A stretch of 34,195 bases of DNA from a virus (Duplodnaviria; Heunggongvirae; Uroviricota; Caudoviricetes), in IMG/VR virus record IMGVR_UViG_2579778804_000007, positions 1 through 34,195 of that record, one strand, 5' to 3'. The position numbers and the translations under genes were made by a program. This document shows positions 23,215-32,684 of the stretch, piece by piece (the stretch's first letter is position 1; every line of letters starts with the position of its first letter). Under the pieces are notes generated by a model. It was not told the DNA's origin, did not search any database, and saw only the letters and a list, made by a program, of their open reading frames with translations.

Positions 23215-23619
23215 TTACCTGCGTGATTGCCTGTTGGCGGCCGAATGCACATAGCGGGCAATTGCCGCTTTTCGGTTAATCGATGCCAGTGTTCTGGTGA
23301 GTTCTGCGTTGTGTTTGTGTGCCTGCTCTTCGTGGTACTGCCGCATGATTTTTCCGGCAGGCGTGAGCGGCTCCGGCTCCCCGGGCGGACGGCGCGGACG
23401 AACGGCGACAAGCCAACTGCGGTTAGTGCTGTCCGGTCGTCCGTTGAGTATGTCGGTGATGATGGCCGTGGTGGTGCGATCGGGACTGACGACCGTGATT
23501 TCCAGCTCATCGCCAGGTTGTGGCCCCGTGGCAATGTTGTTCAGGGTCAGTAAGGGCGTGCGCTGGCGCATCAGTTCGTCAAAACGCTGTCGCTGCATGG
23601 CGCAATAAAAGCGGGTCAT
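23215..23619 (-). CDS. Hypothetical protein, 134 aa, immediately after gpA
   Basis: Start overlaps the gpA stop (coupled translation); no family recognised. Confidence 0.45.
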   Translation of the reverse strand: MTRFYCAMQRQRFDELMRQRTPLLTLNNIATGPQPGDELEITVVSPDRTTTAIITDILNGRPDSTNRSWLVAVRPRRPPGEPEPLTPAGKIMRQYHEEQAHKHNAELTRTLASINRKAAIARYVHSAANRQSRR

Positions 23620-26135
23620 TGTGGCGCCTCCGTATTCGGTGCGGGGGTGATATCAATGCGGCGGGTGCTGTCATTCCAGTACGCGGTGCGTCCGTCAGCC
23701 AGGCGCACGCGGGCACCGTGACGGACGGAAACGACGGCGCTTTCATGCAGCTGCACGCCCAGCGCATCAAGCTCACGGGTGATTTGTGCGGTGATGTGTG
23801 GCTCAGCGGTCAGAGCGATACTCACGCGAACGCCGCCAGCGGGCGCACTGATGCCGCCGTTTTTCACGGTTTCCGTGTCAGGTGGTGGGTTTTTCAGCTG
23901 CCTGGTGAGTTGTTTTCGCTCTGTGGGGGTCAGTGACCTTAACCATTCACCCAAATCACCTTCCGGCAGGGTAAGTCGCTGCTCCCTGCGTCCGTCCGGC
24001 TGCCTTTCTGGCGGGTCGTTTATGGTCAGATTCTGGTCAGGGGGACAGTTATTGCCACGAGTCCAAGGTGCGGCAAAGCCGCACTCAACGTCAAAACCCT
24101 CGTCCGTGCGGTCTTCGTTTTCCGGCTTACGTCTGACCAGTTTCCAGGTGTCCGGGTGGGTGCATATGGTGTAGCGCTCCCCGAGTGACGGGGCGCGGAC
24201 GCCGTAAATGCGTTGCGGGAATTCGCCGTAGTCGTTGGCCTCTTCGGCAGTTTCGTATGCGGTGCGGACCAGGTACGTGTTGCGGGGAATGAGCACACCA
24301 CCCTGGCGGGTGATATAGGTGGCAAAACATCCCACGTCGGCGGCGGCCAGTATGGCGTCAATGTCGTCATGGTCCAGACGCTGCGGGGCTGCCGGGTTAC
24401 GGGCCATCTGCCCGGCAAGGCGGCGGAGTTCGCGCCATACCTGGCGGGGCGGGATGCCGAAGAACTGGAACTGGTGGATGCGGTGAAGGCCTGCCCAGCC
24501 GATTGCGTTCTCCACGGTTTCGGCCATGGTTTTGCCTGATTCCTTATCGACGTAAGGTTTGCCGGTTTTCGGGTCATTCCCCATGAAGGCGCTGGCGTCC
24601 AGGTTCTTACCGATATAGGTCGCGATATAGCTTGTCGGTGTGCCTTTTGCCGGGTCGATTTTTTCGCATTTAAAACGCGGGGAGATATCATCACCCAGCT
24701 CTGCGCGGTCCTCCCTGATGGCGGCGTTGCGCATGATTTCAGTGATACGGGCTTCGTTTTCCGGGCTGGTGAATACCAGCATGTGCCAGTGCGGTGTACC
24801 GTCGTGGTGGGGCTCTACTGTGCGCACGCCGTACCAGCCCAGCCCGGCCTTGTTGATGGCCTTGCGGACGGCGGCGAAAAAGCGGTAAACCAGATAATCA
24901 CTGGCATCACGTACCGTTGCCCCGCAGTATTTCGGGTTCAGACTGCCGTCATCGTTCACGCTGTGAAAACGGGAAGGGGCTGTGACGGTGACGAAAAACG
25001 CCACGTCGCCGCGTGCTTCGGCGACCTGCTCCATTCCCCGGACGCAGGCCATCATCTCGTTACGGCGGTTACGCGGATTAGAGAGACCTGCCCAGTAGAT
25101 ATCCTCAAGGCTGAACCGTTCTCCCTCTTCGTTCTCGATGTCCCAGGCCTTCAGAAAATCGCGGGTGCGCTGGCGTTTTTCGCGCCAGTCCAGTAACGCT
25201 TCATGGCTGATATATACCGACGTCTTACGTGACACCAGGCCTGCGGCGCGTAACAGCTCTTCACGCCAGATGTCCCGGAGGTGTCTTAACTGACTGTTCC
25301 ACCATGTCGCACAGGAAAGGCGCATGACCGCACCCGGCACCTGTTCCGGGTCGGGGGCGGTGCGGCGGTCGGGCCTGATTTCCAGCGACGGCCAGCAGGG
25401 TGGCGTGATACCCAGTTTTAACGCCATGTGTGCCAGTGGCTGGTAGGTCAGTAACCAGGTGAACAGGTCATCGTCACCCCTGCCGGTCTTTTCGATGACC
25501 TCATCACATGCGCGCTCCAGTGCGGTGGAAAACGCGGTGGCGGTCAGGGTGGCAAGGCGCTGGATTTCGTCACGGCTCAGCTGCGGCAGCATAAGCAGTT
25601 CATCCAGCCGTTCGCGCGCGGCGGTGGCCTTAAAGGCCGGGGTGGCAAAGCGATCATTTACACGGGCGATACGTTTCAGGCGGGCACGCAGCCCGTGACG
25701 AACGAAGTTATCCGCCGCGTATGCGCTGTTGTTCTTAAGCCCTTCCCGGCGTGCGCTCTCCTGTTTGCGGCTCAGGCGTGCCAGGTCACGGATGAGCGGA
25801 CCGGCAAGAAACGGCGGCAGGGCGCGCAGCTCTGCCATGGCTTCAGATACCAGTGTGGGCGGATTCTCGTGTTTGTGCCGCGCCAGTTTTTCCAGTCTGA
25901 TCCGACGCTCTTCGTCGTGGTGAAGATGCGAATTAATTCGCTTGCCTTCGTCTGTGTTTGTCTGGAAGTCGACGGTCTCTTCATCCAGTCTTGCATCAAT
26001 GCGAATGTCTTCGTTGATGTAGCTCTGAATGGCCTGGCGCAATGCAGTTGGTTGCGCTCTGCCGAATGTTTCAGGATCGATAACCGGTAGCGGGGCGTTC
26101 CACGGGTACGCCAGTTGTGCATTATGGTCGCTCAT
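23616..26135 (-). CDS. A: Replication initiation endonuclease (P2 gpA family, rolling-circle HUH nuclease)
   Basis: About 840 aa; HUH motif in HHDGTPHWHMLVF; ATG at 26135 with GGGGAG ribosome-binding site (track starts at GTG 26144). Confidence 0.85.
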   Translation of the reverse strand: MSDHNAQLAYPWNAPLPVIDPETFGRAQPTALRQAIQSYINEDIRIDARLDEETVDFQTNTDEGKRINSHLHHDEERRIRLEKLARHKHENPPTLVSEAMAELRALPPFLAGPLIRDLARLSRKQESARREGLKNNSAYAADNFVRHGLRARLKRIARVNDRFATPAFKATAARERLDELLMLPQLSRDEIQRLATLTATAFSTALERACDEVIEKTGRGDDDLFTWLLTYQPLAHMALKLGITPPCWPSLEIRPDRRTAPDPEQVPGAVMRLSCATWWNSQLRHLRDIWREELLRAAGLVSRKTSVYISHEALLDWREKRQRTRDFLKAWDIENEEGERFSLEDIYWAGLSNPRNRRNEMMACVRGMEQVAEARGDVAFFVTVTAPSRFHSVNDDGSLNPKYCGATVRDASDYLVYRFFAAVRKAINKAGLGWYGVRTVEPHHDGTPHWHMLVFTSPENEARITEIMRNAAIREDRAELGDDISPRFKCEKIDPAKGTPTSYIATYIGKNLDASAFMGNDPKTGKPYVDKESGKTMAETVENAIGWAGLHRIHQFQFFGIPPRQVWRELRRLAGQMARNPAAPQRLDHDDIDAILAAADVGCFATYITRQGGVLIPRNTYLVRTAYETAEEANDYGEFPQRIYGVRAPSLGERYTICTHPDTWKLVRRKPENEDRTDEGFDVECGFAAPWTRGNNCPPDQNLTINDPPERQPDGRREQRLTLPEGDLGEWLRSLTPTERKQLTRQLKNPPPDTETVKNGGISAPAGGVRVSIALTAEPHITAQITRELDALGVQLHESAVVSVRHGARVRLADGRTAYWNDSTRRIDITPAPNTEAPQ

Positions 26136-26542
26136 GCGTCGCACTCCCCGGCAGTTGCCGCCTGAAACGCCGCGCGGTACAGCACGAGAAGGCGCTGGTA
26201 TTCACCGATAAAGTCTTCTGCGGTGTATATACCTTTCACGGCCACGCTGTGGTTTGTCATTTCCAGCACAAGCGTCATCTCTGACGACGACCAGCTGATG
26301 GCGGTGCTGTCGGTTCCGTTGATGTGAAATAAACCAAAACCATCACCTTTCACGTCCACGCGGTAACGGTCGTCAACGGTGAAGGAGAAATCCCCGTATG
26401 TGGTGACGCGTCTGGCGGCCTGTTTACAGGCGCGGCGGTAATAGTCGTGCCAGTCGTTGAGGCGGGAAGCCAGCCGGGGCTCCACTGCCCACATCCAGTT
26501 AAAAAAATCCTGAATATCTGAAAGTCCCTTAACGTTCTTCAT
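26132..26542 (-). CDS. Hypothetical early protein, 136 aa
   Basis: Overlaps gpA start by a few nt (operon coupling); no family recognised. Confidence 0.5.
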   Translation of the reverse strand: MKNVKGLSDIQDFFNWMWAVEPRLASRLNDWHDYYRRACKQAARRVTTYGDFSFTVDDRYRVDVKGDGFGLFHINGTDSTAISWSSSEMTLVLEMTNHSVAVKGIYTAEDFIGEYQRLLVLYRAAFQAATAGECDA

Positions 26543-26610: not shown

Positions 26611-26838
26611 TTAGTGGTGGTGTTGCTGGTTGATGAGGCTTTGCAGTTCTGCCATATCTTCGGCGAGATAGCTGAAGACAGCAGCGCAGTAACGGTTTGA
26701 TAGCGCGTGCGTGCGCTCATGCAGCATGTTGATATGCATGATTTGCGCGACGCGTGATGCGCGCCAGAGTCTGCGGTTGATTTCGGTGCGGATGTGAAGA
26801 CGCTCAGCGCGGGCGCGCTGTTGCTTGCGGTTTGCCAT
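26611..26838 (-). CDS. Small basic hypothetical protein, 75 aa
   Basis: Helical-looking basic protein; GAGG upstream of ATG. Confidence 0.45.
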   Translation of the reverse strand: MANRKQQRARAERLHIRTEINRRLWRASRVAQIMHINMLHERTHALSNRYCAAVFSYLAEDMAELQSLINQQHHH

Positions 26839-26877: not shown

Positions 26878-27073
26878 TCCAGAGTTGAGAATCTCGGGGT
26901 GGCGAGACGTACGGGGTTCTCAACACCGGCTACACACGATCCCGGCCCGACCGAAGTCGGCCCCGTACGCCCCGCCATAATTCTGACGCGAAAAAGACGT
27001 GGCAATACAGTACGCACAAAAAAACCGCTGGCGCGGTTGTGCGCGTGTGTAGTCAGCGGGTTGAGAATCCCGG
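26878..27073. promoter_or_regulatory. Intergenic regulatory region: GTTGAGAATC direct repeats (about 26881 and 27060) with an inverted copy (about 26915), inverted repeat CGTACGGGG / CCCCGTACG, and a minus-strand terminator hairpin AACCGC-tgg-cGCGGTT followed by a T-run (about 27015-27045)
   Basis: Repeats and hairpin seen directly in a roughly 380-bp non-coding gap. Confidence 0.4.
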
Positions 27074-27132
27074 CACCCGTTTTATGAGGTGCAGCGGAAA
27101 TGTAACCTGACTCAACGAGCGCTGGCAAGCGG

Positions 27133-27163: not shown

Positions 27164-27224
27164 CGCGGCGCAAAAATGGAATGCGCCGAAGGATAGCGGC
27201 GTTTATTAACAATGGAGGTTGTTT

Positions 27225-27692
27225 ATGCCTGTTGCTATGGAGCAAGCAGACAAGAAGATTTTTTTCCATCTGTGGTACAGCTACTGGCTGGAAGAGATGG
27301 TTTTCATACTCAGCAATAAAGCCGCTGCCGTGTTGCGCGCCGGGGCACTGATTGCTGCGGTATTCTCCTTTCTTCTCGTAGGTTTCCCCGTCCTGATGAG
27401 TCTTTGCGGGCTGGCGTTTTTTGTTTTTTCCTGGTTTTGCAGTAAGTTTGAGTGCGTCGCCGAATGGGCGTGCTGGCAGAAACAGAGCTACCTTCGTCTG
27501 ATTACGCAAAGGGATTTCATGAGCACTGAACGCCTCATTGAGCGCATTCTGTACCTGGAGGAAACGAACAGCGCATTCATGAAGGCGTTTGTCAGGCCCG
27601 CAAAAAACAAAGCGAGCGCATCTGTTGGTCTGTCTGCCAGCGAGCATTTGCGTTACTCCGAAAGGTTAATCTGCTGGTTGTGCGGCTTCTGA
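27225..27692 (+). CDS. Membrane protein of unknown function, 155 aa, transcribed opposite to the flanking phage genes (moron)
   Basis: GGAGG 6 nt before ATG 27225 (track ORF starts at TTG 27219); two or three hydrophobic helices and an amphipathic C-terminal region; own promoter. Confidence 0.55.
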   Translation: MPVAMEQADKKIFFHLWYSYWLEEMVFILSNKAAAVLRAGALIAAVFSFLLVGFPVLMSLCGLAFFVFSWFCSKFECVAEWACWQKQSYLRLITQRDFMSTERLIERILYLEETNSAFMKAFVRPAKNKASASVGLSASEHLRYSERLICWLCGF

Positions 27693-28016
27693 CCGGCGAA
27701 GCAGCTGCGCGACGGTTTCGCTGGCTGCCCGGTCAGACGGGTATGACACTGGCATATTCAGCTTAAGTGCCATTGCGTACTCAGCCCGTGCGCCAGCGGA
27801 CTCTTCCCATCCATCCAGTAAGTAAATGACGTCGACACACATGAGCATCGGAATACAAATGCTCATGTACTGCTGTTGGCTTAATCCGTCCGGCAACATG
27901 GCAGGGCTCAGCACAACGTGCGCGGCTGCTTCGAGCTCCGTCGCCGCTATGGAAAACGCCGTTCTGTTGTGGTCTTTGTATCCGGTCATGGGACCTGCGA
28001 TATAAATCACTGCCAT
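27666..28016 (-). CDS. DUF4406-family protein (nucleoside 2-deoxyribosyltransferase-like fold)
   Basis: MAVIYIAGPMTG N-terminus and DGWEESAGARAE motif match recalled DUF4406 consensus. Confidence 0.6.
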   Translation of the reverse strand: MAVIYIAGPMTGYKDHNRTAFSIAATELEAAAHVVLSPAMLPDGLSQQQYMSICIPMLMCVDVIYLLDGWEESAGARAEYAMALKLNMPVSYPSDRAASETVAQLLRRSEAAQPAD

Positions 28017-28225
28017 GCTTTACCTCCCGTATTGCGTGTTGCTGTCAGCACGCGTACTTCTTCCACGTTCGTGGCGCAGAAGTGCGAACCGTTGATAAGG
28101 CGGATGTGATGCATCTCAGAATTGCGTGAGTCCTGGCGTGTCATGCCCTGGTCAATCAGGCTTTCGTCGACTTCATACTGACGGTCGTTGGCTGTGAATC
28201 TGATAACGGTTGACTCCTTGATCAT
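28007..28225 (-). CDS. Hypothetical small protein, 72 aa
   Basis: ORF in operon register, overlapping neighbours by a few nt. Confidence 0.4.
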   Translation of the reverse strand: MIKESTVIRFTANDRQYEVDESLIDQGMTRQDSRNSEMHHIRLINGSHFCATNVEEVRVLTATRNTGGKAWQ

Positions 28226-28458
28226 TGCTTGACTCCTTGCCCGGCAGATTTCTCGTTGAGCTGCTTTTTAAGGGCGGCGATTTCACTTTCCTGATCCTGA
28301 ATTACCTGGATTGCTTCCATGGTGATCCTCAGTGAAATCGCTGAAGAGATAACGACCTTTGGTCTTCCAGCGGCTGCGGCAGCTCTTGCTGTTTCCTTGT
28401 GTGCATGGGCGATGAGACGCAATTCCCGCAAAAGCCCTTTGTTGTTTTCGCTATTCAT
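28222..28458 (-). CDS. Hypothetical small protein, 78 aa
   Basis: ORF in operon register; coiled-coil-like C-terminus. Confidence 0.4.
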   Translation of the reverse strand: MNSENNKGLLRELRLIAHAHKETARAAAAAGRPKVVISSAISLRITMEAIQVIQDQESEIAALKKQLNEKSAGQGVKQ

Positions 28459-28493: not shown

Positions 28494-29474
28494 TCACGTA
28501 TTGGCTGTGGCAAACATTGCGCTGTAAGTTGCATCTCCCGTTACCGGTCCGCAGTCCGGGCAGTAGCCACCGCCATGGCGACCGCAGGCGTTGCACTGTC
28601 TCAGGGTGGCGATAACCTCCGGTGCTGATTCCCGGGTTCTTGCGCCAACGCTTCGTGGTGCCTGTATGCAGTTCATCCGGTAACCCCGATAAATGCGTCG
28701 TGTTTCCGGTGTGTCGGAATTGGAGATGGTGATGCTGGTCATGCCGCCCGTTTCCTGTGAAAGGCGGTCAAGCGCTGCCCTCAGACGAACGTGCTCGCCT
28801 TCATCGAATGGTTTTCCGTAGGCGGTAAAATTGTCCCGGCCACTGAATTGCAGGTAAGGGGGATCGCAGTACACGCAAAGCGTGTTACCCATGCTGAACA
28901 GGTGGCTGGCACAGCTCAGCGTTTTTCGAAAATCGCCATGAACAAGCAGTGTTCGGGTGCTGTTTGCCTTGTCTGCAAATGCGCGGATTTCCCGTTCAGG
29001 GAAGTAGGGGGTCCGGTAGCCGCCGAAAGAAACGTTAAAGTCACCTTTTCCGTTCACCCGGTACAGGCCATTAAAGCAGTGCCGGTTGAGATACAAAAAC
29101 ATGGCGGCCAGTCGCAGTTCACGGCGGTCTCTCATTCCCGTTCTGCTACTCAGGAAGGCATGATTCTCTGCGTTAAAGGTTTCGCGAATGATGAGATAGT
29201 CACCCCTGTTGTTGTGGTTCAGGAACAGGGTTTTCGCCTCGTCGATCAGGCTGTCGGTGTTGTCCCTGGCTTGCCGGTAGAAATTAATCAGCGCACCATT
29301 GGAATCACCCAGGATGTAACGCTTGTAACTGGTGTTCATGAATACCGATGCGCCACCCACAAACGGCTCAACCAGGCAGTCTGCTTCTGGCAGATGCGCC
29401 TTCAGTGTGTTCATGATGCGACTTTTTCCGCCCACCCATTTCAGCGGCGTACCGGATAACAGTTCTTTGCTCAT
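28494..29474 (-). CDS. dam: DNA adenine methyltransferase (Dam-like) with C-terminal Cys4 zinc-ribbon extension
   Basis: DPPY catalytic motif and N-terminal SAM-binding region; C-terminal CNAC-x9-CPDC. Confidence 0.8.
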   Translation of the reverse strand: MSKELLSGTPLKWVGGKSRIMNTLKAHLPEADCLVEPFVGGASVFMNTSYKRYILGDSNGALINFYRQARDNTDSLIDEAKTLFLNHNNRGDYLIIRETFNAENHAFLSSRTGMRDRRELRLAAMFLYLNRHCFNGLYRVNGKGDFNVSFGGYRTPYFPEREIRAFADKANSTRTLLVHGDFRKTLSCASHLFSMGNTLCVYCDPPYLQFSGRDNFTAYGKPFDEGEHVRLRAALDRLSQETGGMTSITISNSDTPETRRIYRGYRMNCIQAPRSVGARTRESAPEVIATLRQCNACGRHGGGYCPDCGPVTGDATYSAMFATANT

Positions 29475-29677
29475 AACGCGGCCTCTTTGTTATAGGTTTC
29501 GTGCGTTAATAAATCCCATGACACCCCGTTGTTTTTGCTCAGCAGTCGCCAGCGAAAACCGATTCTTATTACCAGGTAGTCGTGGGGTTTTATGCGTGAA
29601 AAATTCCGCACGCCGTCGCGGAATAAACGCAGTGATGCGCGGGCTTTTCTTTCCACGTTCAGGGGGGGCAGCAACAC
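29471..29677 (-). CDS. Hypothetical small protein, 68 aa (GTG start), coupled to dam
   Basis: Stop overlaps dam ATG (ATGA); an alternative overlapping 63-aa ORF exists (29490..29681). Confidence 0.3.
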   Translation of the reverse strand: MLLPPLNVERKARASLRLFRDGVRNFSRIKPHDYLVIRIGFRWRLLSKNNGVSWDLLTHETYNKEAAL

Positions 29678-29706
29678 ACATTCAGGATGGCGACCATAGC
29701 TTCACC

Positions 29707-30297
29707 TCATATGCTCAGGAATGGTGTTGTGAAGCGTTGCCAGATTTCTGACACGACCTTTGCCTGGTAAATGGCATCGCCCAGTGCAGTGTGAGCAATG
29801 GTCTCTTTGCCTGATCGGCCTGGCATTCTCCAGCCGGAGGACTTAGCCATGTCGATAAGCGAACGCATACAGCGCTCGTTCCAGTAGCGCCACGGAACGC
29901 TTTTTTCTCCGGCCGTGCGCTTTATGGCGGATCTCAGGATCGGGAAATCAAAGGATGCGCCCTTGCACCATACGATCAGTTGATTGCCTAGGGTTTCGTC
30001 TTGCATGTTGCGCGAAATGAACGCCAGAAATTCGGTTACTGCCGCAAGTTCTGTTCCCTCTGCGTTGAGCAGGCAGGCTCTGGCCTTCGCGGATTCCCCG
30101 GCCCACCATACGGCGGTTGATGCATTGACGGTTCCGCCGTTGCGCTCTGAATCCACCGGGTCGATGAGTTTCTCAAACTGCTTGCCCAGCTTTCCGGTGA
30201 ACGGGTCGAAAAACACCGCGCCGATCGCGAATATGACTGCATCCGGTCCGGTACCCAGTGTTTCGGTGTCGATCATGAGATGGTTCACTGTGTGCAC
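29707..30297 (-). CDS. DEDD-type 3'-5' exonuclease (DnaQ-like fold)
   Basis: LMIDTETLG Exo I motif near N-terminus and later H/D motifs; start codon uncertain (GTG candidates at 30297 and 30288). Confidence 0.6.
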   Translation of the reverse strand: MHTVNHLMIDTETLGTGPDAVIFAIGAVFFDPFTGKLGKQFEKLIDPVDSERNGGTVNASTAVWWAGESAKARACLLNAEGTELAAVTEFLAFISRNMQDETLGNQLIVWCKGASFDFPILRSAIKRTAGEKSVPWRYWNERCMRSLIDMAKSSGWRMPGRSGKETIAHTALGDAIYQAKVVSEIWQRFTTPFLSI

Positions 30298-32159: not shown

Positions 32160-32684
32160 TCACCGTTCGTTTACATCCTGGCTCTGTTCCAGCTTTGACT
32201 TTCTGCCTTTGTAAACCCGTTTTCCATTGACGGTCTGGCAATCTTCCTTATCAGCCGGGGTAAACTTTCTTTTCTGGCGGTCGTATGTCCAGTAGCTTTT
32301 CCAGTTGTGCCATTCTGGTGGCTCACATTCCGGGAGTTCGTCGGCCAGCTTGTCCCACTCTCTGACGTTAAACCACCAAACACCATCCGAATTCTCATCT
32401 TCAGGGTTTGAGCGGGTTTTATGCCCTGGCATCTGGTTACGCTGAAGAGCTGCGCGTAATGCTGTTTTTGTTAATCCGATGTAGGCGGCCCCTTTTTCAA
32501 GTGAGCAAAGCCCGGCTATTGGGCCATCCAGCCGCAGGGTTGCCCCTTTTTTATATGTGCGCTGTGGCTTTTGTTCGTCGTTGTTATCTGTTGCTTCTTG
32601 TTGACTGGTATCGGCGTTGATGTACGCCGCTCCAGTTGTGTGATCGGTGTCAGATAACTCTTTATCGGCAATGAAGTCCCGCAT
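32160..32684 (-). CDS. Cox-like helix-turn-helix protein (putative excisionase / early regulator) with acidic N-terminal extension, 174 aa
   Basis: First gene of the early operon, divergent from the repressor; HTH AAYIGLTKTALRAALQRN then Trp-rich segment resembling P2 Cox; GAGAGGA ribosome-binding site. Confidence 0.45.
   Translation of the reverse strand: MRDFIADKELSDTDHTTGAAYINADTSQQEATDNNDEQKPQRTYKKGATLRLDGPIAGLCSLEKGAAYIGLTKTALRAALQRNQMPGHKTRSNPEDENSDGVWWFNVREWDKLADELPECEPPEWHNWKSYWTYDRQKRKFTPADKEDCQTVNGKRVYKGRKSKLEQSQDVNER

Follow-up and report, generated by a model that had tools for sequence, protein, structure and literature searches.

Why should the Dam methyltransferase of a temperate phage carry a cysteine-rich tail, and do the genes around it form a dedicated anti-restriction set? 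The question is raised by positions 28,494 to 30,297 of a 34,195-nucleotide (nt) stretch of DNA from a tailed virus of the Caudoviricetes (IMG/VR record IMGVR_UViG_2579778804_000007, positions 1 to 34,195; this whole stretch is referred to as the window). The interval encodes a Dam-family N6-adenine DNA methyltransferase with a C-terminal tail that contains four cysteines (Cys4) and a DEDDh 3'-5' exonuclease, and a DUF4406 protein is encoded nearby. An earlier note, made from the sequence alone, had proposed that these genes are an anti-restriction or DNA-modification set expressed early, and that the tail is a zinc ribbon which adds a DNA-binding or regulatory function to Dam. We report that the interval very probably belongs to the early lytic operon of an E. 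coli prophage of the P2-like kind (Peduoviridae) and that the cluster is ordinary, being already annotated identically in public E. coli genomes. The unexpected point is that, as judged from sequence similarity, the 28-residue module in the tail of Dam also occurs in an uncharacterised part of the recombination nuclease RecE.

The Cys4 tail is conserved throughout a phage lineage of Dam

When the window Dam was aligned to the E. coli Dam structure 2G1P, the alignment ended at query residue 290, and the ~35 further residues hold four cysteines. The segment of residues 287-314 reads VIATLRQ-C294NAC297-GRHGGGY-C305PDC308-GPVTGD and is followed by a conserved ATY. The tail had been described previously as CNAC-x9-CPDC; the two CxxC knuckles of that description are present, and the spacing is corrected here to seven residues (GRHGGGY, between C297 and C305). 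A scan of all six frames of the window revealed that the tail of Dam is its sole CxxC-x4-12-CxxC motif.

We then compared the tail with that of related proteins, using the 120 best database matches to Dam (48-93% identity; from E. coli, Klebsiella, Enterobacter, Citrobacter, and Raoultella), 113 of which were full-length. The tail was present in all full-length homologues (113/113), with 108 of them fitting the strict pattern CxxC-x6-9-CPxC, two displaying CQDC or CAYC as the second knuckle, and three having lost one cysteine. Each of C294, C297, C305, and C308 was either invariant or at least 90% conserved. A second set, consisting of 80 P2-like IMG/VR loci retrieved with the Dam alignment, contained the Cys-rich tail in 63 loci, including variants with x6 spacing and longer variants with eight cysteines; in the rest the tail was point-mutated, frameshifted, or replaced. 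In the half of the family that is ~50% identical to the window Dam, residues 292-318 were 67% identical in comparison to 49% for the catalytic core (rank 40 of 300 sliding windows). Since the tail is conserved across homologues, and more so than the catalytic core, we conclude that purifying selection maintains it and that it did not arise as a frameshift artefact. Indels do occur in this copy, as a frameshift-like difference is seen nearby in the ParE-like open reading frame (ORF) described below; nevertheless, a sequencing or frameshift artefact, or a chance pattern of cysteines, is a vanishingly improbable explanation and was rejected, being ruled out by the conservation data: the same frame and motif recur in the homologues of at least five genera and in the IMG/VR loci, and the tail has significant homologues in other proteins.

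As to its distribution, the earlier note was right that the tail sets this enzyme apart from standard Dam insofar as the chromosomal E. coli enzyme lacks it. Within the peduovirus Dam clade, in contrast, the tail is universal, so that, in this lineage at least, phage Dam proteins of the ordinary kind commonly have it. It is missing from phage Dam enzymes that are more distant, for example those of Erwinia phages, for which the matches stop at residue 291. Several departures from the standard form were also noticed among the IMG/VR P2-like loci: in one lineage the Cys4 is replaced by 'GDVG(C/R)NSGACGAWTS...' and a downstream 'WIGFDxAAGFDNGEP' is regained, other loci have longer tails with ~8 cysteines, and still others carry single Cys-to-Tyr substitutions.

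The module in the tail is shared with RecE and other phage proteins

Profile comparison of Dam residues 292-323 returned local matches to exonuclease models (PHROG phrog_20376 and phrog_2082, and positions 526-556 of the NCBIfam exoVIII model NF007259). Similarly, a tblastn search of the tail against phage genomes located it in peduovirus Dam genes and also inside the large 'ExoVIII' genes of lambdoid and Rac-type phages. In a BLASTP comparison, Dam residues 294-321 aligned with residues 517-544 of RecE, the exonuclease VIII of the Rac prophage in E. coli K-12 MG1655 (b1350), at 68% identity over 28 amino acids (aa; E 2e-10), and the consensus of the 28-residue module common to Dam and RecE/ExoVIII is CxxCGxxGGxxCPDCGxVxGDATY.

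A hidden Markov model (HMM) search of 1.84 billion representative proteins found the module in RecE-like proteins (E ~4e-9), in DexA-like fusions, and in at least five unrelated proteins of small size (79-190 aa), where it is C-terminal. In the ExoVIII-type hosts the module is surrounded by acidic linkers and stands just upstream of a DexA-like or a PD-(D/E)XK nuclease domain. In TRITO_27, an 823-aa protein of phage Tritos, the module is followed after ~60 residues by a PF16473 domain whose identity to the window exonuclease is 40%. The net charge of the module was -1 to -7 in 20/20 clean examples, and the flanks were acidic in the nuclease fusions. The Cys4 tail of Dam appears, then, to be a portable module.

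Large repeat proteins among the top matches of the HMM search were set aside, given that they align with profile positions 21-41 only, through 'VTGDATYTAQF' repeats that contain no cysteines, and hence share half of the motif and are not homologues. The likeness of the tail half xVTGDATYxAxF to the repeated strand motif of these Cys-free proteins is probably convergent or coincidental. A word-indexed protein search with a 43-aa profile of the tail returned three fragments only, this type of search being unsuited to short queries.

The N-terminal region of RecE is of unknown function, and full-length RecE still enhances linear-linear recombination (PMC11611040). RecE is a workhorse of recombineering whose full-length form behaves differently from the nuclease domain alone, and the module, by linking the phage Dam clade to the part of RecE in question, would give mutagenesis and screens for interaction partners a well-defined target at low cost. 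A zinc motif of RecE or of phage Dam was not found described in the searchable literature, which does not prove that the motif is undescribed.

The methyltransferase core resembles E. coli Dam

The Dam ORF matched the D12 N6-adenine methyltransferase family PF02086 over its catalytic domain (5e-51; 174 bits, cut-off 22) and exceeded the cut-off of the Dam-family model TIGR00571 (224 bits, cut-off 114.85). The score against NF008152, the equivalog model of chromosomal Dam, fell short of the cut-off (210.9 vs. 441 bits), indicating that the window Dam belongs to a phage clade separate from chromosomal Dam. Structures of E. coli Dam (EcoDam) ranked first by sequence (E ~6e-49) and also by fold (Foldseek; 33-34% identity). 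The catalytic DPPY is located at residues 204-207 and the FxGxG motif for AdoMet (S-adenosylmethionine) at residues 38-42 (F38-V-G-G-A), both being invariant or nearly so in 114 sequences.

The EcoDam residues that contact GATC are K9, Y119, N120, L122, R124, P134, and Y138 (PMC4417163). In the alignment to 2G1P, K9, N120, L122, R124, and Y138 correspond to the identical residues K12, N135, L137, R139, and Y153 of the window Dam; Y119 is changed conservatively to another aromatic residue (F134), and P134 corresponds to S149. Since five of the seven contacts are identical and one more is a conservative aromatic change, the window Dam is best predicted to be an active N6-methyladenine methyltransferase for GATC, with the change from Pro to Ser as a caveat that is taken up below. 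The window as a whole contains 120 GATC sites vs. 121.9 expected by chance, which are neither depleted nor enriched, and so no bias was seen that would be a trace of selection by or against Dam. The start codon of dam overlaps the stop codon of the ORF upstream (ATGA), and the sequence AAGAGG is found 8 nt before the start.

The exonuclease is related to the anti-T4 nuclease EcD

In T4, the exonuclease DexA serves phage DNA metabolism. The window exonuclease matched family PF16473 (4e-51; 174 bits, cut-off 27), and the solved structures closest to it are 8KEN and 8KEL, both of which are of T4 DexA (PMC12153337). Residues D10, E12, D117, H169, and D174 align with the catalytic DEDDh residues of T4 DexA, W139 aligns with DexA W152, and A85 aligns with DexA D90. 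The equivalent of DexA D169 is a Lys in the MAFFT alignment, which is uncertain at that position. W152 and D169 are the residues of DexA that recognise 5-hydroxymethylcytosine (5hmC), while D90 is a tetramerisation Asp (PMC12153337).

A homologue of DexA from E. coli, named EcD ('HREX'; Kang et al., NAR 2025), leaves unmodified DNA uncut and degrades 5hmC-containing T4 DNA, and plasmid-borne EcD protects E. coli from T4 even without induction (PMC12153337). EcD has Ala78 at the position of DexA D90 (PMC12153337). The Ala of the window protein at this position is likewise residue 78 when the count begins at the ATG at 30276. The forward primer used to clone EcD (ATGATTGACACCGAAAC; from the supplement) matches positions 30260-30276 with one synonymous mismatch, at this internal ATG of the ORF. 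The reverse primer had no match within three mismatches; inspection by eye showed that it fits the 3' end except for a single indel and a single mismatch, for which reason we take the relation to be one of close homology and not of identity. The likely true starts of the exonuclease are 30288 (the 193-aa RefSeq form) or the ATG at 30276 (189 aa), and both forms of the window protein occur verbatim in NCBI E. coli records. The window exonuclease thus appears to be a close relative of EcD, and the published 'bacterial' anti-T4 exonuclease appears to be an early-operon gene of a P2-like prophage that stands beside dam. The EcD paper makes no mention of a prophage or operon context (PMC12153337). 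If EcD does reside in a prophage, its expression and role would be viewed as phage-versus-phage competition or phage DNA metabolism and not as those of a chromosomal defence gene.

Probable placement of the genes in the early operon of a P2-like prophage

Table 1. Features of the dam region and its surroundings in the window.
Feature	Position	Strand	Description
cox-like gene	32160-32684		Upstream of the DUF4761/DUF4754 ORFs; Phage_Cox match
Exonuclease	29707-30297	minus	196 aa; DEDDh 3'-5' exonuclease, Rv2179c-like / T4 DexA family
ParE-like ORF	29471-29677	minus	68 aa, GTG start; between exonuclease and Dam
Dam-family N6-adenine DNA methyltransferase	28494-29474	minus	326 aa; catalytic domain, residues 13-266
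Cys4 module of Dam tail	28533-28616	minus	Residues 287-314
Small early-operon ORF	28222-28458	minus	78 aa; phrog_23826 at 1e-41; hypothetical in E. coli relative
Small early-operon ORF	28007-28225	minus	72 aa; phrog_3459 at 3e-34
DUF4406 protein	27666-28016	minus	116 aa; PF14359 at 4e-33
Hypothetical ORF	27219-27692	plus	157 aa; phrog_6315 at 2e-29
isrK RNA	27018-27092	minus	Rfam match above gathering score
C4 antisense RNA	26895-26982	minus	Rfam match above gathering score
'Derepression protein' ORF	26611-26838	minus	75 aa; PF25738
Gene A replication nickase	23616-26144	minus	PF05840 (Phage_GPA) at 7e-108

From the exonuclease through the DUF4406 protein, six minus-strand ORFs follow one another head-to-tail, overlapping or separated by no more than ~35 nt (Table 1), two small ORFs being placed between Dam and DUF4406. 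The identities and coordinates that had been given for the exonuclease, Dam, and DUF4406 genes were correct (PF16473, PF02086, and PF14359 in Pfam); the ParE-like ORF between the first two had been overlooked. Upstream of the exonuclease are the DUF4754 and DUF4761 ORFs and the cox-like regulator at the head of the minus-strand operon, followed by a repressor and an integrase on the plus strand, while downstream on the minus strand are the isrK and C4 RNA elements, then the 'derepression protein' ORF, and then gene A. This overall arrangement is the canonical layout of a P2-like prophage.

The top-scoring minus-strand promoter-like site in the scanned region is located at 32804-32775, just upstream of the cox-like gene, and is sigma-70-like with 11/12 matches. 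Placement in the early region, as originally suggested, is plausible given that the genes run head-to-tail between the cox-like gene and gene A with the best promoter-like site in front of the former, and early expression of the cluster is a reasonable expectation by analogy with the P2 paradigm. Of 5,426 complete E. coli genomes, 31 contain the 2.8-kb cluster at ~92% identity. In the 92%-identical locus, PGAP annotates an integrase, a helix-turn-helix (HTH) repressor, Cox, a 3'-5' exonuclease, a ParE family toxin-like protein, and a DNA adenine methylase, and after the latter a DUF4406 domain-containing protein, a derepression protein, and a replication endonuclease. The order exonuclease, Dam, gene A was also seen in Klebsiella peduovirus 3LV2017 and in the IMG/VR loci (n = 80).

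The segment 26611-27128 on the minus strand is ~86% identical to phage P88 and Xuanwuvirus, and both the isrK and the C4 elements in it are preceded by a promoter-like site. This segment looks like a P1/P7-type module controlled by antisense RNA that is inserted into the P2-like early operon just upstream of gene A. Between DUF4406 and isrK, a plus-strand ORF of 157 aa runs against the direction of the early operon. In the annotation of the relative it is hypothetical; its sequence looks hydrophobic and membrane-like, and it may be a moron whose expression is independent of the lytic operon.

The ParE-like ORF matched PF24732 (2e-17; 63.3 bits, cut-off 24.4) and overlaps the start of dam. A 75-aa relative is named 'ParE family toxin-like protein' by PGAP. 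In comparison to the 92%-identical E. coli relative, which has a run of eight C, the window has a run of seven (29663-29669), and this places the ATG at 29697, the start of the 75-aa protein in the relative, out of frame and leaves the shorter ORF that starts at the GTG at 29677, suggesting that the ORF is probably disrupted N-terminally in this copy. The difference between C7 and C8 could be a mutation, a sequencing error, or the product of a slippage-prone tract. No antitoxin-like ORF was seen next to the ParE-like ORF, the flanking genes being those of the exonuclease and Dam, and the ParE-like ORF is present in 41 of the 80 related loci. The DUF4406 protein matched PF14359 with 114 bits (cut-off 22) and phrog_355, 'nucleoside 2-deoxyribosyltransferase', at 3e-39; no sequence match to it was found in the PDB, and nothing relevant to DUF4406 was found in the searchable literature.

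Weighing the explanations for the cluster and the tail

The explanation that we favour is as follows. The operon would be transcribed from a promoter upstream of the cox-like gene through DUF4761, DUF4754, the exonuclease, the ParE-like ORF, and Dam, and would continue through the two small ORFs, the DUF4406 protein, the isrK/C4 RNA and derepression-protein module, and the gene A nickase. Through Dam, the phage could keep its replicating and packaged DNA fully methylated at GATC without depending on the host enzyme. The last ~35 residues of Dam would fold into a small zinc knuckle or ribbon of the Cys4 type, with a conserved GPVxGDATY strand after it, and this would be standard equipment for the phage Dam clade. 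The exonuclease would most likely work in the manner of EcD/DexA, degrading DNA from 3' ends, possibly with a preference for the 5hmC DNA of T-even competitors. With regard to the tail, the Cys4 pattern, the CPxCG second knuckle, and the weak similarity to ribbons fit a minimal zinc ribbon, and in this respect the earlier note holds up: the tail looks like a genuine Cys4 zinc-ribbon-like appendix that is missing from chromosomal Dam.

Several observations weigh against this explanation or parts of it. Zinc binding, methylation specificity, and nuclease substrate are all inferred. A Pfam search with the isolated tail gave sub-threshold matches only (Prok-RING_2, 0.017; HVO_0758, 0.064; Zn_Ribbon_TF, 0.22), and the matches to zinc ribbons in the PDB (TFIIB-type and VapC6) were weak profile matches with E 0.003-0.1. 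AlphaFold2 was run with 17 sequences and later with 114. The methyltransferase core could be recognised in the models, and the tail was of low confidence, with a predicted local distance difference test (pLDDT) score of 57-60 for residues 291-310 and <45 beyond, which makes the ribbon fold of the tail a putative one. At the position of Pro134, which contacts a base in EcoDam, at least 90% of the clade likewise has Pro and this copy of Dam has Ser149 (codon 29030-29032), and the specificity or activity of this Dam could therefore differ; discrimination at the inner base pairs of GATC is perhaps what is affected. Since the cysteines have been lost or replaced in some relatives, the Cys4 module is dispensable at least in decaying prophages. 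The link to EcD rests on primer sequences and residue numbering and not on the full EcD sequence. Lastly, the exonuclease gene is a neighbour of dam in 34 of 63 loci with the tail and in 15 of 17 without it, leaving the idea of a common partner for these enzymes, discussed below, without direct support; in the absence of a positive association across the 80 loci, the adjacent exonuclease was rejected as the partner of the Dam tail.

Are the genes an anti-restriction set instead? Dam methylation can protect GATC sites from restriction of the MboI/DpnII type, the genes are situated within the early operon, and the tail is missing from chromosomal E. coli Dam, T4 Dam, and the more distant phage Dam enzymes, all of which would be in accord with an early anti-restriction or DNA-modification set in which a zinc ribbon gives Dam a DNA-binding or regulatory function not found in standard phage Dam. 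We consider this explanation improbable, and the proposal of an anti-restriction set was not borne out. None of the cluster members matched an anti-restriction family (ArdA, Ocr, KlcA, DarB, and similar) in Pfam, PHROGs, NCBIfam, or PADLOC, none of which is dedicated to anti-defence; in PADLOC, Dam matched orphan and type II methyltransferase models, the exonuclease was a weak generic DEDDh match, and nothing else was found. In the 80 related loci, Dam is almost always followed by gene A; the exonuclease is found with Dam in 49 of them and DUF4406 in just 6. Klebsiella phage 3LV2017 lacks a ParE-like ORF at this point, its exonuclease gene lying directly against dam. The region is mosaic, being made up of accessory early genes, and does not amount to a conserved three-gene system. 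EcD, the nearest characterised relative of the exonuclease, is reported to be a nuclease that acts against T4 on 5hmC DNA, and not an anti-restriction factor (PMC12153337). Moreover, the tail is universal in this phage Dam lineage, the module is acidic, GATC occurs in the window at the frequency expected by chance (120 vs. 122), and the natural host already methylates GATC. For the latter reason, methylation-sensitive digestion of lysogen DNA would be non-discriminating. A different function for the set, competition between phages, in which the exonuclease destroys the 5hmC DNA of superinfecting T-even phages, the DUF4406 protein handles the modified nucleotides released, and Dam marks or protects the prophage DNA, strikes us as rather unlikely, if less so than anti-restriction. 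P2-like prophages are reportedly carriers of anti-phage genes, and the exonuclease has the EcD-type Ala at the DexA D90 position together with the Trp equivalent to W152, in keeping with its closeness to EcD, which degraded T4 DNA and protected E. coli (PMC12153337). However, the genes are inside the repressor-controlled early operon, outside the P2 defence hotspots that are known, and no prominent internal promoter was seen; the equivalent of D169, a residue reported as key for 5hmC recognition, is not clearly conserved. The DUF4406 protein rarely co-occurs, and its proposed role, based on its resemblance to a nucleotide N-glycosidase or transferase, is speculation. In addition, a prophage-encoded Dam homologue of E. 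coli EC958, whose membership in the clade of the window Dam is not established, is transcriptionally silent in the lysogen (PMC4659465).

What, then, may the tail do? Given that the module is acidic, short, conserved, and attached to unrelated DNA enzymes, often within disordered linkers, we tentatively regard it as a protein-protein tether or assembly element that may bring DNA enzymes to a common host or phage partner. It is unlikely that the module sets DNA binding or sequence specificity; the DNA-binding role once proposed for the tail is disfavoured by the net acidic charge of every clean example. An action of the tail in cis, as a structural cap, a dimerisation element, or a DNA clamp that alters the processivity or the flanking-sequence preference of Dam, has in its favour that small Cys4 knuckles often stabilise termini, that the tail comes directly after the last beta-strand of the methyltransferase fold, and that there are the weak matches to TFIIB-type and VapC6 zinc ribbons. 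We find it unlikely, because RecE-type proteins also contain the module, within long linkers that are acidic and probably disordered, as do unrelated small proteins at their ends, settings without a methyltransferase fold to be capped, and because the net negative charge speaks against clamping of DNA. Extending the tether reading, the module could be an undescribed portable element of temperate enterobacterial phages that directs Dam, RecE, DexA-like exonucleases, and small early proteins to one shared partner, e.g., a component of the replisome or of recombination, an idea that we hold to be doubtful. If this idea is true, the tail of Dam would account for the puzzling N-terminal part of RecE, on which efficient linear-linear recombination depends, and that question would become directly testable. 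Beyond what is already annotated, the value of the locus resides in the homology between the Dam tail and the RecE module and in the placement of an EcD-type exonuclease in a prophage early operon.

Comparison with known systems

Compared with EcoDam (2G1P/4RTJ) and the TIGR00571 family, the window Dam has in common the D12-class fold, DPPY, FxGxG, and the five GATC contacts. It is unlike EcoDam in having Phe for Y119 and Ser for P134 and in being prophage-encoded in an early lytic operon, and it has the 35-residue Cys4 tail, whereas EcoDam and T4 Dam do not. The same Cys4 tail is present in Dam of Klebsiella phages 3LV2017 and ST16-OXA48phi5.4, Salmonella phages SW3, SI7, and SEN4, Enterobacter phage phiT5282H, and E. 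coli prophages (e.g., WP_016232593.1). Like the window Dam, the Dam proteins of the Peduoviridae (45-93% identity) are 311-345 aa long and encoded between the exonuclease and gene A; the differences are minor, namely Ser149 in the window protein and x6 spacing or 8-Cys tails in some relatives. The E. coli lineage differs from other Peduoviridae in that the ParE-like ORF is inserted between the exonuclease and Dam.

The window exonuclease is only 24% identical to T4 DexA, and it resembles EcD/DexA in the DEDDh residues, in the Trp equivalent to W152, and in the EcD-type Ala at the D90 position. Generic CPxCG Cys4 ribbons (TFIIB, archaeal HVO_0758-like micro-proteins, and the C-terminus of VapC6) consist of two CxxC knuckles at a short spacing like that of the tail; the GGG loop and the GDATY strand, in contrast, are specific to the phage module and not found in generic CPxCG ribbons, and all matches to the latter are below the family thresholds. 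RecE is composed of an Exonuc_VIII N-domain and a PD-(D/E)XK C-domain, without a methyltransferase, and shares only the module with Dam. In RecE/ExoVIII the module is internal and surrounded by acidic linkers, whereas in the window Dam it is C-terminal and the exonuclease is encoded by a separate gene.

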